Below, in pieces: positions 2,546 to 63,812 of a stretch of DNA of 64,000 nt (its first letter is position 1; each line of letters begins with the position of its first letter). The stretch lies in IMG/VR virus record IMGVR_UViG_3300031999_000008, positions 1 to 64,000 of that record; one strand, written 5' to 3'. The notes beneath the pieces were generated by a model that was not told the origin of the DNA, did not search any database, and saw only the letters and a list, made by a program, of their open reading frames with translations. The DNA comes from a virus. A program made the translations under genes and the position numbers.

Positions 2546-4225
2546 ATGCAAGTAAAACATGCGCTGCCAGATCAGAACTTATCCATCAGGCGTTCAGAAT
2601 GGGTAACTACTTTATTGCATCTTGACGGTAAACCTTTTTCACTAGATCATTTCCCCTTTTACCGTCAAGTGTACGATAACCTGTATCCGGCGCTTTTGCT
2701 GAAGACAGCGCGACAGGTCGCAAAAAGTACGACGCTTGCAAACTTCTTGATCATGGAAGCGTGTAGCACGCCGCACTGGAAGAGTTTCTTCATTGCGCCT
2801 AGTCAGGAACAGACGACGAAGTTTTCCCAAACCCGTGTCGGCAAGACAATATTCTACTCTCCAGATATACGTAAGCGTTGGGTATCCAAAGAACTCTCCA
2901 GCCGTGTATTCCAGAAAATGTTTACCAACGGATCTGAGTTGGCATTTTCGTATGCGAGTGATGACCCTGACCGTGCCCGTGGTGTTTCGGCCGACCGCGT
3001 CGCTTACGACGAAGTACAAGATATCATGTATGACGAGGTTATTCCCGTCATTAACGAATGTATGGCGAACTCCGATTTCGCCTATGAGACTTATTGCGGT
3101 ACGCCTAAATCAATGGAAAATACCATTGAACAACTATGGCAGTGGAGTACCCAAACTGAATGGGTAATCAAATGCACTGGCTGTAATACGTACCAGTTCT
3201 TTGAAGATGACAAATGTTTAGGTAAACACGGCCCTATTTGCCTGAAATGCGGCAAGTACCTTAACGTACGTAATGGCGAGTGGGTAGACATGCGGGTCTA
3301 CCCCAACGACTACGAAGGAAAGCGCATTAAAGGATTCCACGTACCTCAGGTAATTCTACCTAAGAACGTGCCAACCTCCATGCCCTCTGATTTCAAAAAT
3401 CAAGAAGTGGCACAAGCGCGATGGCGCCGTATTATTGAGAAGCATGCCGTTTATCCCATCTCCAAGTTCAAGAACGAGGTGATGGGCGTCTCGGACGCTA
3501 TCGGTACTCGCTTACTTTCTAAAGAAGAATTAGAGAGTATGTGCGAGGAATACGATATCCAAGACTACCCCGCGCATAACCTCTTACTCACGGACTTGCG
3601 TGCTGTCGTGGCCGGCGTCGATTGGTCAGGCGGCGGCACCACAGGTGCATCCCGTTCTGTCTTGTGGATCTGGGGCATTACGGGTGGCGGTACGGAGCAC
3701 AGCTTCAAGCTGAAGACGTTGTACTTCAAAATATACCCTGAGACGAACCCCATATCCGGTGGCGTCATTGACCATATCGTGGATATGTGCGGACGGTTTA
3801 ACGTACAGCTGATATTCGGTGACGCAGGTGAAGGCGCTCTCGCGAACTCCAATCTGCGCGAACGCTTAGGTCCACACAGAGCAATGCAGGTGCAGTACCG
3901 CGGCGTTTCGAGCGCAGGCGGCGGTGGTAATTCGCGCCCGTTCTACTGGAACAAAATAGATCGATTCCTTGCGGAACGTACGACAATGATCGATCACTAC
4001 TTCATGTTCATCAAGCGTAGAGGCGTGATTTTTCCGAACCTTCGTTGTATGCAAATCCCTATTCGGGACCTGCTAAATGAATACGAAGAAGTTACGCTGC
4101 AAGGCCGTAAAGTGTGGAGACATGCGCCCTCCCAGCCTGACGACTGTCTGCACGCACAAGTCTTCGGCTGGATGGCCGCGAAGATGATGACCATGGATCC
4201 GTTGTTCACGTACAACGGAGGATAA
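2546..4225 (+). CDS. terL: Terminase large subunit (lambda GpA-like, with Zn finger)
   Basis: ARQVAKST Walker A, VAYDEVQD Walker B, GTP motif III, CxxC..CxxC, nuclease AGVDWS and PDDCLHA. Confidence 0.9.
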   Translation: MQVKHALPDQNLSIRRSEWVTTLLHLDGKPFSLDHFPFYRQVYDNLYPALLLKTARQVAKSTTLANFLIMEACSTPHWKSFFIAPSQEQTTKFSQTRVGKTIFYSPDIRKRWVSKELSSRVFQKMFTNGSELAFSYASDDPDRARGVSADRVAYDEVQDIMYDEVIPVINECMANSDFAYETYCGTPKSMENTIEQLWQWSTQTEWVIKCTGCNTYQFFEDDKCLGKHGPICLKCGKYLNVRNGEWVDMRVYPNDYEGKRIKGFHVPQVILPKNVPTSMPSDFKNQEVAQARWRRIIEKHAVYPISKFKNEVMGVSDAIGTRLLSKEELESMCEEYDIQDYPAHNLLLTDLRAVVAGVDWSGGGTTGASRSVLWIWGITGGGTEHSFKLKTLYFKIYPETNPISGGVIDHIVDMCGRFNVQLIFGDAGEGALANSNLRERLGPHRAMQVQYRGVSSAGGGGNSRPFYWNKIDRFLAERTTMIDHYFMFIKRRGVIFPNLRCMQIPIRDLLNEYEEVTLQGRKVWRHAPSQPDDCLHAQVFGWMAAKMMTMDPLFTYNGG

Positions 4226-4229
4226 AAAA

Positions 4230-4365
4230 TGAGTAGCGTCCTATTAACCGCCCAACGCCAAGGCGTCGTAAATCAACACAGACCACGAAACTCTCTTCAA
4301 CACAAACCATTTGCGTCGGAGGGAGAAAAGGAGGGGTTAGTGTTGAAGCCGGGATCGACTACTCA
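4230..4365 (-). ncRNA. Candidate structured small RNA (~135 nt)
   Basis: Terminal inverted repeat TGAGTAG..CTACTCA, inner stem CTTCAACAC/GTGTTGAAG, GACGCC/GGCGTT hairpin, early-type promoter immediately upstream, T-run downstream. Confidence 0.55.
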
Positions 4366-4370
4366 GATGC

Positions 4371-4394
4371 TTTTACCATAAAAGGTAATCTTTT
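4371..4394 (-). promoter_or_regulatory. Early-type promoter AAAA-N13-GGTAAAA
   Basis: Matches the motif at 58623, 59277 and 63789. Confidence 0.55.
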
Positions 4395-4926
4395 ATGATG
4401 CATCGTTTACTAGTTCAGGTGTCACCGCTAACGGTAATTTGGGCTTGAGCTGGTACAGTGCCATACGGTTATTGATCAAGAAGCCGGGATAGGCACCAAT
4501 CAAAACTTCGGCAGGCGGCTGTACAGAGCGAATGGCCGACTTCTTCAGGCGTAGTTTACGCGCCACATTGAAGATAGGCATAAGCTCAATGATCCCTGTT
4601 TTGTTATTGAACATCACAATGCAGGGGTCGATGAGCAAAACTTCATCGTCGTCTTCTTTGACGTTGATACCCATGATAGGCCCATCAGTGGTCGAGTAAA
4701 CCTCGATAGCATGCCCTGCAGCACAAAAACCATTGTCCTTTACCAGGGCGAATTCCACGTAGCTACGTTTGTGCATCTCCCCTGTCTTAACCCAGTCAAC
4801 GACCAACTGACCGTTCACGGTACTCGCCTTTGACTCCCACGCGGGTTCGGTATCGGTAGCGACGCCATACCGAAACTCTATACCAAACTTTTCAAATGTT
4901 TTGGTCTCAAGCTGCCTCGAAAGCAT
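4393..4926 (-). CDS. Hypothetical protein (C-terminal Sm/SH3-like beta domain possible)
   Basis: ORF follows the DNA polymerase; start uncertain (4926, 4953 or 4962). Confidence 0.65.
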   Translation of the reverse strand: MLSRQLETKTFEKFGIEFRYGVATDTEPAWESKASTVNGQLVVDWVKTGEMHKRSYVEFALVKDNGFCAAGHAIEVYSTTDGPIMGINVKEDDDEVLLIDPCIVMFNNKTGIIELMPIFNVARKLRLKKSAIRSVQPPAEVLIGAYPGFLINNRMALYQLKPKLPLAVTPELVNDAS

Positions 4927-7900
4927 CGTTTCGGAGTTCTGTGAGTAGCTCATTTTCTTCAATCACTCCCTCGGGTTGAATCAGTAATGGGTGCTTGGCT
5001 AGATACTTTGCAATTGACTGGCACTCACCATAGTTCTCACCGATTTCAGTATCGGCTTCAAACGGTACTGCCATCCAGGCGTATTTGTCGGCAACGCGCT
5101 TCTTAGCGTAGTGCTCGACAAAGTCATGGAGCTGGCCAATATGCCTCTTGGGAAGCTGGAACGCAATAGAGTCGTGAACCGTAAGCAGCATACGTCCGCC
5201 TAGGTCACAACGTAGGGGCTCTTCCATTTCAATAAGCTGTCCGATGACAATATCAGAGCTCGTGGACTGAATTTTGAAGTTACGGCCCTGGCGTTTGGCA
5301 CGTCCGGCGTGTCGAGAAATACCTGCCAAGGGGAACCGACGGCGACGCCCAAAGAAAGTCTCTACGAAATGGTCCCGTGCTACTTCGAGCTCAACGTTAG
5401 TCGCGTAAAGCGCGATCTCCGGGAACATCTGGTAGAGCAGCGCGATGAGTACCTTGGCTTCATCAACGCTCACGCCAATGGTCTCCGAGATCTTCTCAGG
5501 GCCTGCGCCATAGAGAATCCCGAACACCACGCGTTTAATGTTGCTGCGCTCTTGGTCTAGGAGCTTGCGTAGAGCTCCATCAGGAATAAATACGGCGTCG
5601 TCCCTGCGTGCGTACATCTCGTAGGGACGCTTAAATACTTTAGCCGCGAAGAAGCTGTGCATATCCATGCCGTCATTGAGGGCTTGGATAAGCGCAGGGT
5701 CTCGGGCGTAGGCGCAGAAAACACGGACCTCAGCGCCCTTGTAGTCCATGTTGACGAAAACCATGCTGTCGTCGTCGGGTAGAAATAGTTTCTTGAGGTT
5801 CCAACCTGCCAAGAACTTGGGCAGGTTTTGCATATTCATATCACTGGAGCTCAACCGCCCCGTACCCGTTCCGTTCAAATGGAACTGGGTATGTAGAAAC
5901 CCGTCGCGCTTAGACAGCGCTCGAATGTTGGCCAAGAAAGTATTACGCGCTTTACTGGCCTTGCGGTACTTGATCAACCGCTCAATGAAATACGCCGTCT
6001 CCGTAGGGCACTGCTTTTTGTCATCTTCGTACGCAACGAACTGTCGTAGTATTTTCTCAGAGGTACTTGCTTGACCCTTCTTGGTGTACGCAAGTATTTC
6101 GTACGCATCCATCTTCTTGCCGTTGGGGTGCGTCCAGCCCCAATTGTACAAGACGTTGGCTAGCGTAGCAGCGCCGTTCAAATTGATCTCTTTACCGGGA
6201 GGAGCGCTGTCGCGCGTCATCTCGTAAAGCTCTTTTTCTGTCTTCTCAATAACGTTGGTAAACGCTTCTTCGAGAACGTCAATATACGGAATGTCGACCC
6301 GCATGCCGCCAAATTCCATGCGTCCCAATACACGGGACGCCGGGACGGCGTGGCTCTTCATAAGCGGTACAACCTTGGATTGCTCCTTGGCAATACGGCG
6401 CCGCTGAAGACGGGCAAGCTGGCGTGTCACGTCACCATCGACAGCACCGTAGATCTGCAGATCGTGGATAGGCAGGTTCTCAAACCCTGCATCTTTGCTG
6501 ATCTGCTGCTCTTTCTTGGAGCGGGGATCTTCCGGCTTCTTGGGCTCTTTTACAGCCGCGGGCTTCTCCGGCTTAGAGAACCACTTCACAGGTTTCTTAG
6601 GCTTGCCGCGTTTACCCTTAGGCCAGTCCGATACCTCTACATCCCAAGCCGCCTGCTTGCCTGCCAAGGCAGATTTACAGAACAAATAGTCGTCGTAGGC
6701 AAACTGGTACGCCTTATCGGCAACATCAAATATTTGCTTATCCGCTTCGTAAACAACGAGGGCTTCTTTGTACTCTTCAAGAGACTTGAGATAGCCAGGG
6801 TGCTCCGTTGCGATGATCTCACGGAGGTCTTCTAATTCTTTCTCCGCCTCATCGACTTTAGACGCGCTCTCTTCGTCATTGAGCAAGTCGTACAGTTTGT
6901 CTTCGTACCCGCAGTACTGGGGCAAAAAGTTGGCTGTGAGTACCTTCAGGCCGTAATTGCCCTTCTTGTCCTCATCAAGCAAATGCTCACCCAACAAGGT
7001 ATCCCACGCCACGGCATTCACGGGCATACCGTATTTGAGCTCAATGAACTTCAAATCGAATTTCGCGTTGTGAAGAATCTTTGGCTTCGTGCTAGCCAGG
7101 ATCTCGCGAATCTTCGCGGTGAGCTCAGGCAACCGCGCCAAGTATTCTTCACCCGCATGTGGATGGTCGTAAAGAATAGTCGCGGACTTACCCGCGTCCC
7201 ACCCAAAACAAAACGCAATAATGCGCGCCCCTTCCTTCTCAGGATAGAGCGTTGTTGTTTCAGTATCTACCGAGATGGACCAGTGTGCTGCAGGGACTGT
7301 GGCACTGCCGTAATTTAGGATTACGTCACACGCAGCTAGTGCGTCATCCATCGTCTTGGGCAGTAAATAGTCCTTGGACACTTCTTCCAGAGGAAGTGCA
7401 AGAATGCCCTTGTTCACTACTTTATCAAATATATTGATTAGGTTTAGCTTGAACGTCTCAAACACACCCGGAGCTGCTAGCAGCGCCTTTTCACTAAACG
7501 TGGTGTAGATGGGTGCGTTGTACCCGAGATGCGTCGTGAACTTATTACGTATGTCGTTGTACTGCTGCTTCACGCCTAGCTGGCGTAGTGCAGTAGAACC
7601 CATCGCGACAATTACCTTGGGGTTGAACCGCTGTATCGTACCCTGTAGATAGGGACGACAGTGGTGCACCACTTCTTTGTTTGGCGCAGCCGTCTCATCT
7701 TCGGTCTCGGAAATACATTGAACTGCGTAGGTAAACGCATAGCGCAGTTCTTTGTAGCGCTTGTCCGATCCTATTACGGCCTTGAGCGCAGTAGTCAGTA
7801 CTTTGCCGCCATGGCCGGCCATCGGCGTGCCCGCGTCCACTGACGCTCTATCGGGCTGCTCTGCAATAAATAGGACGTCTACTTCAGCGTCAATTTTAGA

Positions 7901-8005
7901 ACTGCCACACCGCTTACTAGGATGTCGGGGACAGCCATTGCAAATCTGGCCTTTATGCTCAAGGGATAAGCCCTCTTCTAGCCCCTGGTCAGGTTCTGTA
8001 GACAT
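4907..8005 (-). CDS. polA: Family A DNA polymerase with N-terminal UDG-like domain and 3'-5' exonuclease
   Basis: Exo I SVDTETT, Exo II HNAKFD, Exo III YGAVD; TGRLSS; motif A DYKGAEVR, motif B KRVVFGILYG, motif C VHDS; N-terminal UDG family-4-like CxxC/LFIAEQP/PKVIVAMG. Confidence 0.93.
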   Translation of the reverse strand: MSTEPDQGLEEGLSLEHKGQICNGCPRHPSKRCGSSKIDAEVDVLFIAEQPDRASVDAGTPMAGHGGKVLTTALKAVIGSDKRYKELRYAFTYAVQCISETEDETAAPNKEVVHHCRPYLQGTIQRFNPKVIVAMGSTALRQLGVKQQYNDIRNKFTTHLGYNAPIYTTFSEKALLAAPGVFETFKLNLINIFDKVVNKGILALPLEEVSKDYLLPKTMDDALAACDVILNYGSATVPAAHWSISVDTETTTLYPEKEGARIIAFCFGWDAGKSATILYDHPHAGEEYLARLPELTAKIREILASTKPKILHNAKFDLKFIELKYGMPVNAVAWDTLLGEHLLDEDKKGNYGLKVLTANFLPQYCGYEDKLYDLLNDEESASKVDEAEKELEDLREIIATEHPGYLKSLEEYKEALVVYEADKQIFDVADKAYQFAYDDYLFCKSALAGKQAAWDVEVSDWPKGKRGKPKKPVKWFSKPEKPAAVKEPKKPEDPRSKKEQQISKDAGFENLPIHDLQIYGAVDGDVTRQLARLQRRRIAKEQSKVVPLMKSHAVPASRVLGRMEFGGMRVDIPYIDVLEEAFTNVIEKTEKELYEMTRDSAPPGKEINLNGAATLANVLYNWGWTHPNGKKMDAYEILAYTKKGQASTSEKILRQFVAYEDDKKQCPTETAYFIERLIKYRKASKARNTFLANIRALSKRDGFLHTQFHLNGTGTGRLSSSDMNMQNLPKFLAGWNLKKLFLPDDDSMVFVNMDYKGAEVRVFCAYARDPALIQALNDGMDMHSFFAAKVFKRPYEMYARRDDAVFIPDGALRKLLDQERSNIKRVVFGILYGAGPEKISETIGVSVDEAKVLIALLYQMFPEIALYATNVELEVARDHFVETFFGRRRRFPLAGISRHAGRAKRQGRNFKIQSTSSDIVIGQLIEMEEPLRCDLGGRMLLTVHDSIAFQLPKRHIGQLHDFVEHYAKKRVADKYAWMAVPFEADTEIGENYGECQSIAKYLAKHPLLIQPEGVIEENELLTELRNDAFEAA

Positions 8006-11000
8006 CAATCAATTCCTTGCAGAGGATCTCCCTCGTCGATAGTGAACGGCTGCTTAATTGGAATGACCTCAGCGACTTCAGATACCTTACCATTGCGATC
8101 GAACGCTTCGGAATCTGCAATAGCCTTCCGATGTTTATCGATGAGGTTGCCTACGGAAATCAGGCTATAAACGTCTGACGAGCTGGTCATGCCTGCGGCC
8201 ATCAGCCGTGTAATAATGCCTAGTTTTGTAGCTTCCGCTTTATCAATCAACCACTCACCCGCAGTCTCTGCTTCAGACTTCAACGAGAAGGGTGTCTTCG
8301 TTCGGTACTGCGCATTCTTGAGCAGTGTCTGTTTTACCTCAGACCACATAATGCCAATGCACTGGGACCGCTCATCATAGTATACGCCCACTTTACTGGC
8401 GCTGATTTTGTCCCGCTGATTCTGATCCAGAAGCATGGACTTGATGTTGGTAAATTGATTAGGCTCGTCTTTGGCCGGAATAGGCGCGTTCAGGACCGTA
8501 TCAATAATGTTGTGTCCAGCAGTGCTTCGATTACGCTCGTAAACCTGCTGCTTACGCGTCTCACGATAGTCCTCGATAAACTTCTTACCGTCAACGCCAA
8601 ACGCGTCTAGGACCGCTGCCATCGGCATTAGGTTTTCCGTGAAACGGTCGACGTTCTGAATATTGATTGCACCGTCGCCTGCTTGGCGCCGACCAAACTG
8701 GTTGTACAGGTCAGAGTAGCGTTGCTTAACGCGAGGTGCCAAATGAAGGGAGTGTAGCAACACACTCAGGCGCAATTTCTCTATTTCCTCAAGGGAAAAG
8801 GCATTGCGTAATTCTAGGCGGACGTTGTTGTGGTTTGGATTCTTCTTGAGATTGATCGTGTTAAAACGACTCTCATCCATGGCATCCACAATGGGCGTAC
8901 CGCTAGCGGTGATCACATTATTCTGTAGGTGATACGCCCGACTCTGTCCCTCTACAGTACCTTGGCTGAGCGTAGCCTTACCCGCGGTGGCTAACGTACG
9001 GCAGCGCTGGTAGAACGTCTTCTTGTTACGCGAATCAGGGGACCCGTCATCGGGATCGTTCATCTCATCGAGCGCCGATACCAACCGGGTATTCGTGAAT
9101 ATCTGGTAAAAACCCGCCTGTGTAAAGCTGTCCAACGCAAGCGCGTGATCACACAACGAGAACTCGCGTAGCTGCGTATGGTTCGCTGTCACGGACAATA
9201 GCGTGGTCTTACCCGATTCAAACTGCGCCTGGTAATGTGTGAGCATGCGACGTCCGGTAATAACGTCGTACAGATGATTGTAAAATACGAGACCGGCACA
9301 GTACAAAGAGTCGACTTCCTGATTTCGGAAACCGAAGCCTGTATTGATTAACTTGTGCACCATTGTGAAGGTCTGGTGTGCCGTGTACGGCGGCCGTTGG
9401 GTAATGTCCGCTGCGCACTTTATTTGGTTCGTCCAACCGTGCTCCATATCCTCAATGAGGTTACGGCGGTGGTCTAGGTCAAATACGATGCCGTTATCAC
9501 TAGGCCCCTCTAACTCAGTAACAGTAGAAAGACTTGATAAATCAGCGGTCCACTTAAGGCGATAAACACGATTGCCATTAACAATATACCCTGGTTTTCC
9601 GACATCTACATTCTCCAGGTGAATGCCCTGACCCTTGATGAAACCACCCGCGTAGTCAACGGCCTCAGCAGAGAGCATGCTGTACGCGCGCTGTACATCC
9701 TTCTCAATCATCTCTTCGGACTTGTCCAGCGCCGTCTGGGCTGACTCAGGGTCGTCCACGGAGGGGAAGTACGAGGGAAGGCCAATTTCATCCCGTGCCC
9801 AGTAATAAAGACTGCCGCGGGTGGTATACCGTTTGAACTGGGTAATGGCCGCTTTGTGGTCCACTTGAACAGGCAGATACTGCTTGCGTGTTTTATTCCA
9901 TAGCTTGAGAACGCCCTGGTCACAGTCCCAGGTAGTCACTTGGTAATTGCTTCTAATCCAATCCGCTATTTTCTCGACAAACCCAAGCGCGGTATCGTCT
10001 TGCAATTGCGTCTTACGGAGCAAGTCCGTTGCAGGGACGGACGGACACATCCTCGCAAATTCTTCTGCGAAAACCTGGCGCTCTGCGTCATTACGCAGGA
10101 TCGTACTGAACTCGGTACCTACCTCTTGTAGGCCAATAATATTGTCTTGGTGAATACCCTTGATACGCGTCTTCGCGCGTTCAATACACCAACGCGTTGC
10201 GAATATGTAATTCTTGGGCTCACAGACTTCTTTAAATACAACGTCGAATCCGTGTACCTTAATAGCCTCATCCGGGTCGATCTTGCCAGGTACAGGATTA
10301 CGTATACGCTGAGGCCATTTAAATACCTGAACCGCAACACGGCGAGTCTTAGGCAACACACTCGCGGGATAGCTATCTCCCGCGGCATCGTCATCGCCCA
10401 TAAGGCGACACTCGGTGAAACCGAGGTCGGCCATGAAGTCTACGCCGTTGTGACCTGCTCCGCCCAAGGCAATCACAACTTCGTCGACATCAGGGCAGTT
10501 GGTGAGCATGCCCTGCGTCAGTGCTAACGCGTCGTGTTCGCCTTCAACAGCGATAAAGCGTGTTACCTTCTCGCTTGCGTAGTGTTTATAGAACGAGGAA
10601 GTAAGTACTCCAAAAGCACCGAGTTCCCCGCCTTCCTTAGGCCGCACAAACCGTACAGACGCTTTATCCGGCCCGGGAATACGTAGCTTAAAGGCGGATA
10701 CCTCGTCTGGAGAAACAGCGTACGTGTACGTAACGCAGTTCATGTAAGTGACATTTAAATAGTCACCAACAAGTCGCATGCACCAAGTAATATCCTCTTC
10801 GTTACCGCCCAACTGCGCGCACAGCTTTTGTAGATCAGTGGATGTTGGGAGCATGCCCAACGACCCCAACATGTCTACCGACGTAATTCCGCGCTGCTTG
10901 AGCCACGTAACGGTGTTCGCCGCATTCTGCGGTACTTTGTCAGCGAGCCATACCTTACATAGGTACTGGTGAAAAACCTCGTTCAACATCTTCATGCGAT

Positions 11001-27803: not shown

Positions 27804-28032
27804 CCATGGCCGTAGAGCGCTACTCATGAAGCTAGGGCTCGACGCCGAAGCGTTCACCCAAATGGTTCAACAAGACGATACTGCTGACTTCGTAAATCAA
27901 AATACGACGTCTAAAGACATGAACCAGAATCTGGATAAAGCGCCTGCATGGGGTAGCCAGAGCTCCATGGAAGCTGGCGACGCAGGCACTCGCAATTACC
28001 AGATGGGTCTTCCTCGCGCAGGCGCGGTGTAG
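27790..28032 (+). CDS. Small leader-bearing cargo protein
   Basis: N-terminus YNHGRRALLMKLG. Confidence 0.65.
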   Translation: MRLYNHGRRALLMKLGLDAEAFTQMVQQDDTADFVNQNTTSKDMNQNLDKAPAWGSQSSMEAGDAGTRNYQMGLPRAGAV

Positions 28033-29843
28033 TGTCTAAAACGCTGGGTCAGTATTTGTTGGATGGGGCGATACCCGTTGGGTACCGCCCTAAAGACGTA
28101 TATTCTAAGTCCGATCTACGTAGCAATATGCTGCGATTAGCTAAGGATGATCCAGCGCGTTACACAAAAACAATTACAGAAGTAAAGCGTTTAGGCGATG
28201 AATTCGCCACTAATTTAGGTATATCAGTAGGCCTTGATGATATCGAGCCCTTGTATAAAACACGCGACGCCATTACCAAGCCCGCGTTGGCTCGCGTTAA
28301 AAAAGCCAAGACCAAAACAGAGCGGCAAGACATTATCTCGGAAACTCAGGATAAACTCCTAGAGTACGCCATGAAGCACCCAGGAACCATGGGTGAAATG
28401 GCACGGTCCGGCGCACGGGGTAGCTCGCTCCAACTCATGCGTGCCGTAGGCGCACCCGCCGCAAGTAGCGACGAAAAAGATGATCTACAAGGTTGGCTGA
28501 CAACGCACAGTTATGCGGAAGGCCTTCGTCCTTCAGAGTGGTGGGCCAATAACCGTGAAGCCCGAATGGCTGCGGTAAAGACTCAGAATGAGGTCATGGA
28601 GCCCGGCGATTTATCTAAGATTTTGATCAACAATACCAGTGATCAAATCGTGACTATATCGGATTGTGGCACCAAAAACGGCCTACTTATAGCGCTTACG
28701 GATTCACATATTCTAGATCGCTTTACGGCACGCACCGAACACGGACTGCCTCGCAATACGCTCATGACTCCCCGGGTTGTAAGCACGCTACAGCAGCAAA
28801 AAGTCGAACGCATGTTGATGCGGTCACCTATGACTTGCGAAGCGCAGCACGGCATCTGCCAACATTGTGCAGGTTTGAGTACGCTCGGCGTCATTAACAA
28901 GATCGGTGAAAATTTAGGCATTCGTGCAAGCCAGTCGTTAGGGGAACCCCTTACGCAACTCGCGCTGAATGCTAAACACGGCGTCCGTCTTTCAGGTGCT
29001 AACCCGCTAGAAACCACCGGGCTAGAGGGCTTTCGCAAGCTGCTAGAATCCCCTGCGTCCTTCAAGAATAAAGCGACGCTCGCTCCTGAAGACGGCGTCG
29101 TTACCGCGATTTCAAAAGCACCTCAGGGTGGCTATTACGTCACGGTCAACGAAAGTAAGACGTACGTGTCCCAGGGGTTAAAACCTACTGTCTCTATAGG
29201 CACGACCGTCCATGCTGGCGACGTTCTATCTGAGGGGACGCCGCGCCCCGATGAGGTTGTGCATTACAAAGGCCTCGGCGCAGGCCGTGCCTACCTCGTG
29301 AATAAGCTCGGCGGCATCTACAAAGATAGCAAAATAAACGTAGATCGTCGGCATTTTGAAGTACTCGCGAAGTCTACGCTCAACCACGTACGTATTGAGG
29401 ACGTGGACGATGCTGACTCTGCGGCACATGGTCTCGTACGTGGTGATGTAATCGACTACAACCGTTATCGTAATATCGTGGGCGACAAGACACAGCACAC
29501 GGATATAGATAACGCTGAAGGTAAGTACCTCGGTGAGGGTGTATTGCACCATTTGGCAGGTACGCAGATTACGCAGCCAATGCTAGCTGAAATAAAAGAT
29601 GCCGGATTTACTAAGGTACGCACGGCTAGCCAGGCGCCTGTTGTGTCTGCGGTCATCGCGCCTGCGACGCGTAATCCTCTGTTGAATCCCGACTGGCTTG
29701 TTCGGATGGGACATCGTTATTTGAAGCAGTCCCTTTTAGAGGGAGCCCAAAAGGGACAAACTTCTAACATTCACGGCACGAGTCCGGTCCCCGGTCTCGT
29801 ATTCAGCGGGGAATTCGGTGAGGGTGAAAATGGCCAATACTAA
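28032..29843 (+). CDS. rpoC2: RNA polymerase beta' C-terminal half (bridge helix, trigger loop, Zn site)
   Basis: GISVGLDD, SGARGS, SYAEGL, DCGT..RSPMTC..GICQHC, SQSLGEPLTQL..H, DRRHFEV. Confidence 0.93.
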   Translation: MSKTLGQYLLDGAIPVGYRPKDVYSKSDLRSNMLRLAKDDPARYTKTITEVKRLGDEFATNLGISVGLDDIEPLYKTRDAITKPALARVKKAKTKTERQDIISETQDKLLEYAMKHPGTMGEMARSGARGSSLQLMRAVGAPAASSDEKDDLQGWLTTHSYAEGLRPSEWWANNREARMAAVKTQNEVMEPGDLSKILINNTSDQIVTISDCGTKNGLLIALTDSHILDRFTARTEHGLPRNTLMTPRVVSTLQQQKVERMLMRSPMTCEAQHGICQHCAGLSTLGVINKIGENLGIRASQSLGEPLTQLALNAKHGVRLSGANPLETTGLEGFRKLLESPASFKNKATLAPEDGVVTAISKAPQGGYYVTVNESKTYVSQGLKPTVSIGTTVHAGDVLSEGTPRPDEVVHYKGLGAGRAYLVNKLGGIYKDSKINVDRRHFEVLAKSTLNHVRIEDVDDADSAAHGLVRGDVIDYNRYRNIVGDKTQHTDIDNAEGKYLGEGVLHHLAGTQITQPMLAEIKDAGFTKVRTASQAPVVSAVIAPATRNPLLNPDWLVRMGHRYLKQSLLEGAQKGQTSNIHGTSPVPGLVFSGEFGEGENGQY

Positions 29844-63679: not shown

Positions 63680-63751
63680 TGGGCCTACTTGGACTCGAAC
63701 CAAGAACGTTCCACTTATGAGGTGGGGGCTCGACCATTGAGCTATAGGCCC
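63680..63751 (-). tRNA. tRNA with CAT anticodon, probably Ile2 (lysidine) rather than Met
   Basis: GGGCCTA acceptor stem with C4-G69/C5-G68, CCAC-CTCATAA-GTGG, GTTCGAGTC. Confidence 0.88.
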
Positions 63752-63788
63752 TTCACAACTGAAAAGCAGACGCTTTGCTGCTATACTC

Positions 63789-63812
63789 TTATACCGAATT
63801 TTTGTTTCTTTT
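63789..63812 (-). promoter_or_regulatory. Early-type promoter AAAA-N13-GGTATAA driving the tRNA unit
   Basis: Recurrent motif. Confidence 0.65.

Follow-up and report, generated by a model that had tools for sequence, protein, structure and literature searches.

A predicted small RNA gene with its own promoter and a covarying closing helix lies next to terL in an uncultured clade of large phages

Results

Genes and features at the locus

The window, that is the whole 64,000-nucleotide stretch of DNA analyzed here, corresponds to the first 64 kb of an IMG/VR record of 90.9 kb, which is estimated to hold approximately 51% of the genome. The source phage is a member of an uncultured clade whose phages have genomes of approximately 180-190 kb and a sigma factor and multisubunit RNA polymerase of their own; the corresponding genes of the window are listed in Table 1. 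The product of terL matches the Pfam families GpA_ATPase / Terminase_6N and is 76-88% identical among relatives. It converges with a replication block, the last gene of which, an ORF of 189 aa, matched no Pfam or PHROG family. The 1033-aa PolA protein of the same block starts with a domain of the uracil-DNA-glycosylase superfamily, which is followed by 3'-5' exonuclease and polymerase domains in a single chain.

The gap between terL and the replication block very probably holds an independent RNA gene on the minus strand. On the basis of sequence comparison, this gene is the representative of a previously undescribed family. Searches with terL in IMG/VR and in metagenome contigs returned approximately 100 loci. 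The closest cultured phages, Salmonella phage Arash and Vibrio phage D69, have a terL that is approximately 30% identical and a different gene order after it: the genes downstream of terL are co-directional in both phages, and the RNA element is absent. A megablast search against phage records found nothing.

Table 1. Features of the terL-replication gap and of other regions of the window
Feature	Position	Strand	Remarks
terL (large terminase)	2546-4225	+	Upstream convergent neighbour; stop TAA 4223-4225
Predicted RNA gene, approximately 140 nt	approximately 4365 to 4224	-	
U6 run	4224-4229	-	Directly after the 3' arm of P1; predicted 3' end / terminator tail
50-aa ORF, considered spurious	4229-4381	+	GGAGG 6 nt upstream; spans the RNA gene
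Closing helix P1, 3' arm CUACUCA	4230-4236	-	Pairs with the 5' arm
Inner arm of the initial annotation	4295-4348	-	CUUCAACAC (4348-4340) with GUGUUGAAG (4303-4295); alternative, less stable pairing
C/U tract CCCCUCCUUUUCUCCCUCC	4318-4336	-	First block CCUCCUUUU anti-SD-like, predicted exposed
Closing helix P1, 5' arm UGAGUAG	4359-4365	-	Predicted RNA 5' end at or adjoining 4365
Promoter core TGGTAAAAG	4370-4378	-	Extended -10-like, consensus TGGTAnAAG; 4 nt before P1
Upstream promoter element CATAAAA	4391-4397	-	12 nt before TGGTA; shares bases with the stop TAA (4395-4393) of the 189-aa ORF
189-aa ORF	4393-4962	-	Last gene of the replication block; ends just before the RNA promoter
UDG-exonuclease-PolA fusion	4907-8008	-	Replication block, upstream of the 189-aa ORF; then a primase-like gene
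Sigma-70-family protein, 227 aa	13143-13826	+	Pfam, regions 2 and 4
RNA polymerase beta fused to the N-terminal part of beta', 1464 aa	22615-27009	+	Pfam
RNA polymerase beta' domain 5, separate 603-aa chain	28032-29843	+	Pfam
tRNA-Met/tRNA-Lys operon	63751-63812	-	Same promoter class as the RNA gene

Fold of the element in the window

An initial annotation of the gap, made from the sequence of the window alone, had described a closing stem, a promoter just upstream of the stem and a U-run after it. All three features are confirmed. The closing helix, hereafter P1, has an ensemble pair probability of 0.76-1.0 and encloses approximately 120 nt, and it is followed by a U-run on the minus strand only. 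On both strands, the stability of the fold exceeds that of shuffled sequences (z = -2.75 for the minus strand and -3.1 for the plus strand). A scan for consensus intrinsic terminators (G+C-rich stem, loop of 3-8 nt, U-run) detected none in the gap.

The same annotation had placed a C/U loop on the minus strand, on top of an inner arm. The tract exists, and its first block CCUCCUUUU is exposed, with an unpaired probability of 0.69-0.99 in both inner folds; the second block, CUCCCUCC, pairs for the most part with the purine stretch GAAGAGAG. The inner arm itself, CUUCAACAC.AACC/GGUU.GUGUUGAAG, can be drawn but is not favored: the fold constrained to contain it reaches -42.1 kcal/mol, 5 kcal/mol worse than the minimum free energy of -47.1 kcal/mol, and its pair probability is approximately 0 because CUUCAACA pairs preferentially with the second copy of GUGUUGA. 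In a contig with a 100% identical terL (L002/L021), the sole difference from the RNA of the window is a change from G to C at position 4324. The change alters the plus-strand GGAGGGAG, so that the minus-strand CUCCCUCC becomes CUCGCUCC; the second C/U block is thereby broken, and the exposed first block remains intact.

We ran the covariance models of Rfam 15, a search proposed with the initial annotation, on positions 3900-4800 of the window and on the loci of eight relatives. No family was matched, and all hits were chance matches (E-values of 0.9-9.8) far below the gathering thresholds. ARAGORN found no tRNA or tmRNA at the locus of the window.

Conservation of the element in related phages

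The RNA unit is detectable in 11 lineages (the window, L003, L004, L005/6, L007, L008, L023, L034, L035, L029 and the L026/L014/L012 group), where it lies on the strand opposite to terL and measures 59-229 nt. Its closing helix is composed of 8-14 contiguous base pairs (8 in the window and 11-14 in the relatives) that enclose 40-200 nt. In an alignment of eight sequences, 95.8% of the cells of the helix pair, and compensatory changes involving both sides occur at 9 out of 12 pairs. None of 500 shuffles reached these values, and only 24-57% of the cells pair when the partners are slid by one to three columns. Five further lineages have closing helices of 12-13 bp with a different sequence. From this pattern of substitutions we conclude that the closing helix is under selection. 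A lack of structural conservation in relatives had been named as one possible objection to the initial annotation; since the structure is conserved with covariation in 11 lineages, this objection falls.

Seven lineages have no element (L010/11, L013/30, L018/31, L025, L028, L032 and L033), and none of them has a promoter core within 1.5 kb downstream of terL. As the core is absent wherever the element is absent, promoter and structure have been gained and lost jointly, as one gene. When we scanned the genomes examined with a script that looks for the promoter followed by the stem, we found one copy per genome.

The interiors of the RNA cannot be aligned between lineages, and range from a rod of 59 nt (L034) to multi-helix RNAs of 190-229 nt. 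Given these large differences in size and shape, the shared parts are the helix, the promoter and the tract only. The large versions contain a hairpin, P2 (GCGAUGUnCCGUCGC), which is common to five lineages. Since MAFFT and RNAalifold aligned only P1 and P2 reliably, we make no claim for other helices. We also considered a packaging RNA of the phi29 type, for its adjacency to terL and for the helix formed by its 5' and 3' ends, and discarded it on account of the missing Rfam match, the variable length (59-229 nt) and the differing inner folds.

The position of the element, exactly between the convergent late (terL) and replication units, could also be that of a mere terminator or insulator, with an RNA product that has no function of its own. 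Bidirectional terminators between convergent operons share with the element this position, a stable helix and a minus-strand U-run; both strands of the element fold well, and in L010 and L011 a plain bidirectional terminator, made of an A-run, a hairpin and a T-run, occupies the very site of the RNA element. However, a terminator needs no promoter, while here an invariant promoter is aimed into the element and strictly co-occurs with it. Moreover, what would be the loop is a structured interior of 40-200 nt with further conserved helices, such as P2 in five lineages, and it displays a single-stranded tract that is conserved; on the plus strand, the helix is not followed by a T-run. We consider it unlikely that termination or insulation is the whole function of the element.

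The 3' tails differ between lineages. The window, L008 and L023 have six or seven uninterrupted U immediately after the helix, U-rich tails that are shorter or interrupted, with no uninterrupted run of more than four U, are found in L003, L034, L029, L026 and L014, and no U-run follows the helix in L004/5/7, L035 and L012. In this last group read-through is plausible. Being directed into the 3' end of terL, the promoter might drive a long antisense transcript that holds the late packaging genes down early, with the element as a stabilizing 5' domain. The U6-7 runs of the window, L008 and L023 argue against such a transcript, as does the location of the unit in L012/L014/L026/L029, where 75-430 nt of other sequence separate it from terL; the exposed C/U tract, furthermore, would be left unexplained. 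Antisense control of terL is in our opinion improbable.

Additional units were noticed in these phages. L010 (1124-1224, minus strand) and L011 (388-488, minus strand), and similarly G004 at position 201, have a unit of the same design elsewhere in the genome, which comprises GGTATAAG and a closing helix of 9 bp with an AUCCUCUUU tract immediately within, 88 nt altogether. In L010 and L011, which have no RNA beside terL, this unit might represent either a gene leader or a second small RNA. In three phages with a terL approximately 50% identical (L040:3040-3437, L042:3110-3410 and L048:3189-3500), the first approximately 400 nt after terL contain, on the terL strand, three to four copies of a lineage-specific motif of 12-14 nt (CTCYACTTCG, CATGCCGCTTTGTG or GGTACTGCT). 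Sequence able to form a hairpin comes after each copy, and these regions could be arrays of small structured RNAs or modules of promoters and terminators.

A promoter class shared with other genes of the phage

The core GGTAnAAG precedes the helix by 4-6 nt in each of the 11 lineages; 10 of them have TGGTA and L029 has GGGTA (GGGTATAAG). Upstream of the core, [AG]TAAA is retained at a fixed spacing of 12 nt in eight out of eight aligned relatives. The arrangement AAA(A)-N13/14-GGTA also occurs at other minus-strand sites, and AAA(A)-N13/14-GGTAtAnG followed by ..TAGAG is found upstream of minus-strand genes and of the tRNA-Met/Lys operon in the genome of the window phage. In this genome a regular expression for the promoter class matched 24 times, counting overlaps and corresponding to approximately 10 distinct sites, compared to 3.9 +/- 2.3 matches in shuffles, and 22 of the 24 matches are on the minus strand. 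G001, the 189.9-kb record to which L008 belongs, is the only complete genome carrying the RNA among those examined; there we found nine matches, all on the strand of the RNA, and none in the control. Because the -10-like hexamer always ends in G and not in T, we suggest that the promoter may be read by the sigma factor or the polymerase of the phage itself.

Overall, the comparison of sequences supports the gene unit, its helix and its promoter class, and the discrete minus-strand RNA proposed in the initial annotation holds as a predicted gene, with a promoter of its own that belongs to a class used by the minus-strand genes of the phage, a helix and a U-run.

The promoter of the tRNA-Met/tRNA-Lys operon reads GGTATAAG. 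The stretch from it to the first tRNA contains a hairpin and, after the hairpin, UUUUC (GCAGCAAAGCGUCUGC), an arrangement reminiscent of an attenuator.

Choice of the strand

All four U-G cells of the closing helix in the eight-sequence alignment become C-A on the plus strand. The minus-strand fold is the more stable one in seven out of nine comparisons, by 14 kcal/mol in L003. Total G-U counts (32 versus 27) are a weak basis for the choice of the strand, and the promoter is thus the main argument in favor of the minus strand.

A functional plus strand would imply either an element with GGA or GGAGG motifs in the 3' UTR of terL, acting as a CsrA-type sponge or as a parking site for ribosomes, or else a small ORF. 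The plus strand does fold as well as the minus strand (z = -3.1) and carries GGAGGGAGAAAAGGAGG, transcripts of terL must run into the element, and an ORF of 50 aa preceded by an SD sequence is present. This ORF has no match in Pfam and, since its ATG and its frame were not found in the relatives, we do not regard it as a gene. The shorter ORFs behind the SD-like tract fare no better, with no conserved start and with frames that shift with respect to the conserved motif. The sponge had been put forward in the initial annotation and finds no backing either: the plus strand has one purine tract with one to three GGA, far from the many repeats of known sponges such as CsrB and RsmZ, and both the conserved promoter and the U-G pairs speak for the opposite strand. 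A function of the plus strand is accordingly very hard to credit.

A recurring pyrimidine tract, usually predicted to be unpaired

A pyrimidine tract recurs 15-45 nt from the 5' end of the RNA, and it is usually unpaired with a probability of 0.5-0.9, compared to a mean of 0.2-0.35. It reads UUUCCUCCU in L004/5/7, where it lies in a hairpin loop and is invariant while the middle of the RNA varies, UUUCUCCUU in L008, UCCCUCCUU in L023, (U)CCCUCCU in L026/14/12, UCUCCCCC in the apical loop of L034, CCUUCUC in L035 and AUCCUUG in L003.

The motif of the window served as a hypothesis set in advance, and the test used the other lineages only, with an expectation derived from dinucleotide shuffles. 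CCUCC or CUCCU occurs within the first 55 nt (at nt 19-37) in four out of eight other independent lineages, compared to 1.13 expected (P-value = 0.0115), and it was never found on the plus strand in the lineages tested. In L003, L034, L035 and L029, that is four out of nine independent lineages, the motif is degenerate or absent. By duplex energy, the RNAs bind a consensus SD no more strongly than their own mononucleotide shuffles do. The recurrence of the anti-SD motif thus appears to lend real but moderate support to a role in pairing.

Candidate targets

A short, stereotyped leader of the form GGTATAGG-gtttt-AACAAGGAGAAA-n-ATG stands in front of at least eight small genes on the minus strand of G001, between 104 and 113 kb, and of two more located elsewhere; every one of these genes also has a promoter to itself. 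The exposed tract of the RNA in the same genome (GGUUUCUCCUUGUUAGAG) is a perfect complement of 13-15 nt of this leader. The resulting duplexes reach -22 to -26.5 kcal/mol, compared to -7 to -15 kcal/mol for other promoter units, and a match of 15 nt was obtained in none of 1000 shuffles. This extended match comes from one genome, in which the copies of the leader are not independent. The seeds of other lineages rarely match the start regions of G001, and no such leader array was found in G003, a complete genome without the RNA.

Within the 90.9 kb available for the window phage, the best complementarity between the tract and any start region is 10 nt, which is what chance would give (P-value = 0.40 in shuffles; random windows agree). 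By synteny with G001, the leader array of the window phage would lie past the end of the record. A 14-mer scan for the missing half of this genome, or for further genomes combining the RNA with a leader array, matched at least 112 unrelated contigs, and a promoter 16-mer scan for further arrays returned chance matches. Used as queries, a protein of the G001 array matched only itself, and a neighbouring protein of 698 aa matched other phage groups without arrays of the GGTA type. The occlusion of GGAGG sites by the RNA, as suggested in the initial annotation, therefore stands in part: the motif recurs, on the minus strand only, and the RNA of G001 matches a leader over 13-15 nt, but the best match in the window phage is at the level of chance.

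The products of the genes in the G001 array, which was also seen in L106/L284, are 78-309 aa long; the promoter reads CTGGTATAGG, the leader gttttAACAAGGAGAaa and an upstream anti-SD arm TCTCCCTGTT. Two sites in G000:C1, both on the minus strand and beyond the window, have a promoter core bracketed by an inverted repeat, namely GCCCTCCTTGGT..GGTAAAAG..ACCAAGGAGGG-ATG at approximately 66290-66370 and CACCCTCCTT..GGTATAGG..AAGGAGGGT-ATG at approximately 84650-84730.

At these two sites of G000 (near 66336 and 84704), as in the whole G001 array, the repeat uses the SD of the following gene as its 3' arm. Transcripts reading through the G000 sites would mask this SD, while transcripts from the internal promoter would not. 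Such anti-SD arms acting in cis around promoters indicate that masking of the SD by CCUCC-type sequences is within the regulatory repertoire of these phages.

The tract could also work without pairing to any messenger, as a decoy of the 3' tail of the 16S rRNA (CCUCCUU) that sequesters a protein binding to this tail or to pyrimidine tracts, such as a toxin or endoribonuclease of the host that cuts at CUCCU/UCCUU, or ribosomal protein S1. The tract of the window, CCUCCUUUUCU, resembles the 3' end of the 16S rRNA, it is exposed on a very stable scaffold with sealed ends, and the 90.9 kb of its genome contain no specific mRNA target that we could find. On the other hand, the decoy comes without a candidate partner protein, the motif is not universal, and the conserved flanks of the tract in G001 follow the leader of the phage itself and not the 16S tail. 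We rate a decoy function as a rather improbable explanation of the tract.

Discussion

Taken as a whole, our preferred reading combines a stand-alone RNA gene, pairing of its tract to SD or leader sequences, and a helix that doubles as a terminator; we give this complete statement a probability of approximately one half. Transcription, timing, pairing and targets are the parts that we infer. According to this reading, transcription would start from CATAAAA-N12-TGGTAAAAG, a phage-type promoter 4 nt before the first helix. The 5' and 3' ends of the transcript would then pair as the closing helix, followed by the U-run, which would end the transcript and protect both ends of the RNA. Incidentally, the helix would also keep minus-strand transcription from entering terL. 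Just inside the helix, the single-stranded CCUCCU(U) tract would be displayed; most likely, it would pair with the SD or the leader of messages from the phage or the host and block their translation.

A bolder version, which we put forward tentatively, sees in the RNA a master off-switch for a battery of early genes, which would mask the common leader and SD of many small genes with their own promoters. A very stable RNA would build up from a promoter of the early class, and its seed and the leader would co-evolve across phages. As the genes of the phage itself have strong SDs, an anti-SD RNA without specificity would affect them too.

Several known systems resemble the element in part. The c4 RNA of phages P1 and P7 (Rfam C4) has exposed segments that pair around the ribosome-binding site of a message of the phage itself and block its translation (PMC12197685). 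Like c4, the element is a small structured RNA encoded by a phage and with an exposed segment, for which we propose the pairing. However, c4 is released by processing of a longer transcript, forms part of the immunity operon in temperate phages and controls one operon, while the element appears as a stand-alone gene made of promoter, helix and U-run, its phage is large and encodes an RNA polymerase, and its targets may be many. With the hairpins of RNAIII of Staphylococcus aureus and with RsaE/RoxS it would share an unpaired C/U-rich motif that matches SDs of the GGAGG type and the organization as an independent unit that ends in a terminator. These RNAs are encoded by hosts, in the Bacillota, and are unrelated to the element in sequence and fold; unlike sRNAs with C-rich loops, moreover, the element has one tract, placed just inside a long helix between its 5' and 3' ends. 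Most likely, the RNA works in a manner closest to c4 and to the sRNAs with C-rich loops, yet it belongs to none of those families. In phage T4, early messages are shut off through their ribosome-binding sites by proteins, the endoribonuclease RegB and the translational repressor RegA. The logic proposed here would be the same, and the role of an RNA in it is suggested by the complementarity to the leader in G001.

To our knowledge, very few regulatory RNAs have been described in large phages of the lytic type, and none in this uncultured clade. A survey published in 2023 yielded over 10,000 predicted structured RNAs from IMG/VR (PMC10690425). Comparative support for the element is unusually clean, as promoter, helix and exposed tract come and go as a unit and the helix has accumulated many compensatory changes. 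The seed that matches a shared gene leader in a complete relative, in addition, provides a testable hypothesis. Should the pairing prove false, the element would still be a useful annotated family of RNAs, and a warning against calling the overlying ORF of 50 aa a gene. If it proves true, a single RNA can time the shut-off of a whole class of genes in phages. This would be the RNA-only equivalent of RegA and RegB of T4 in a clade with its own RNA polymerase, and would offer a compact set of promoter, RNA and leader for synthetic control.
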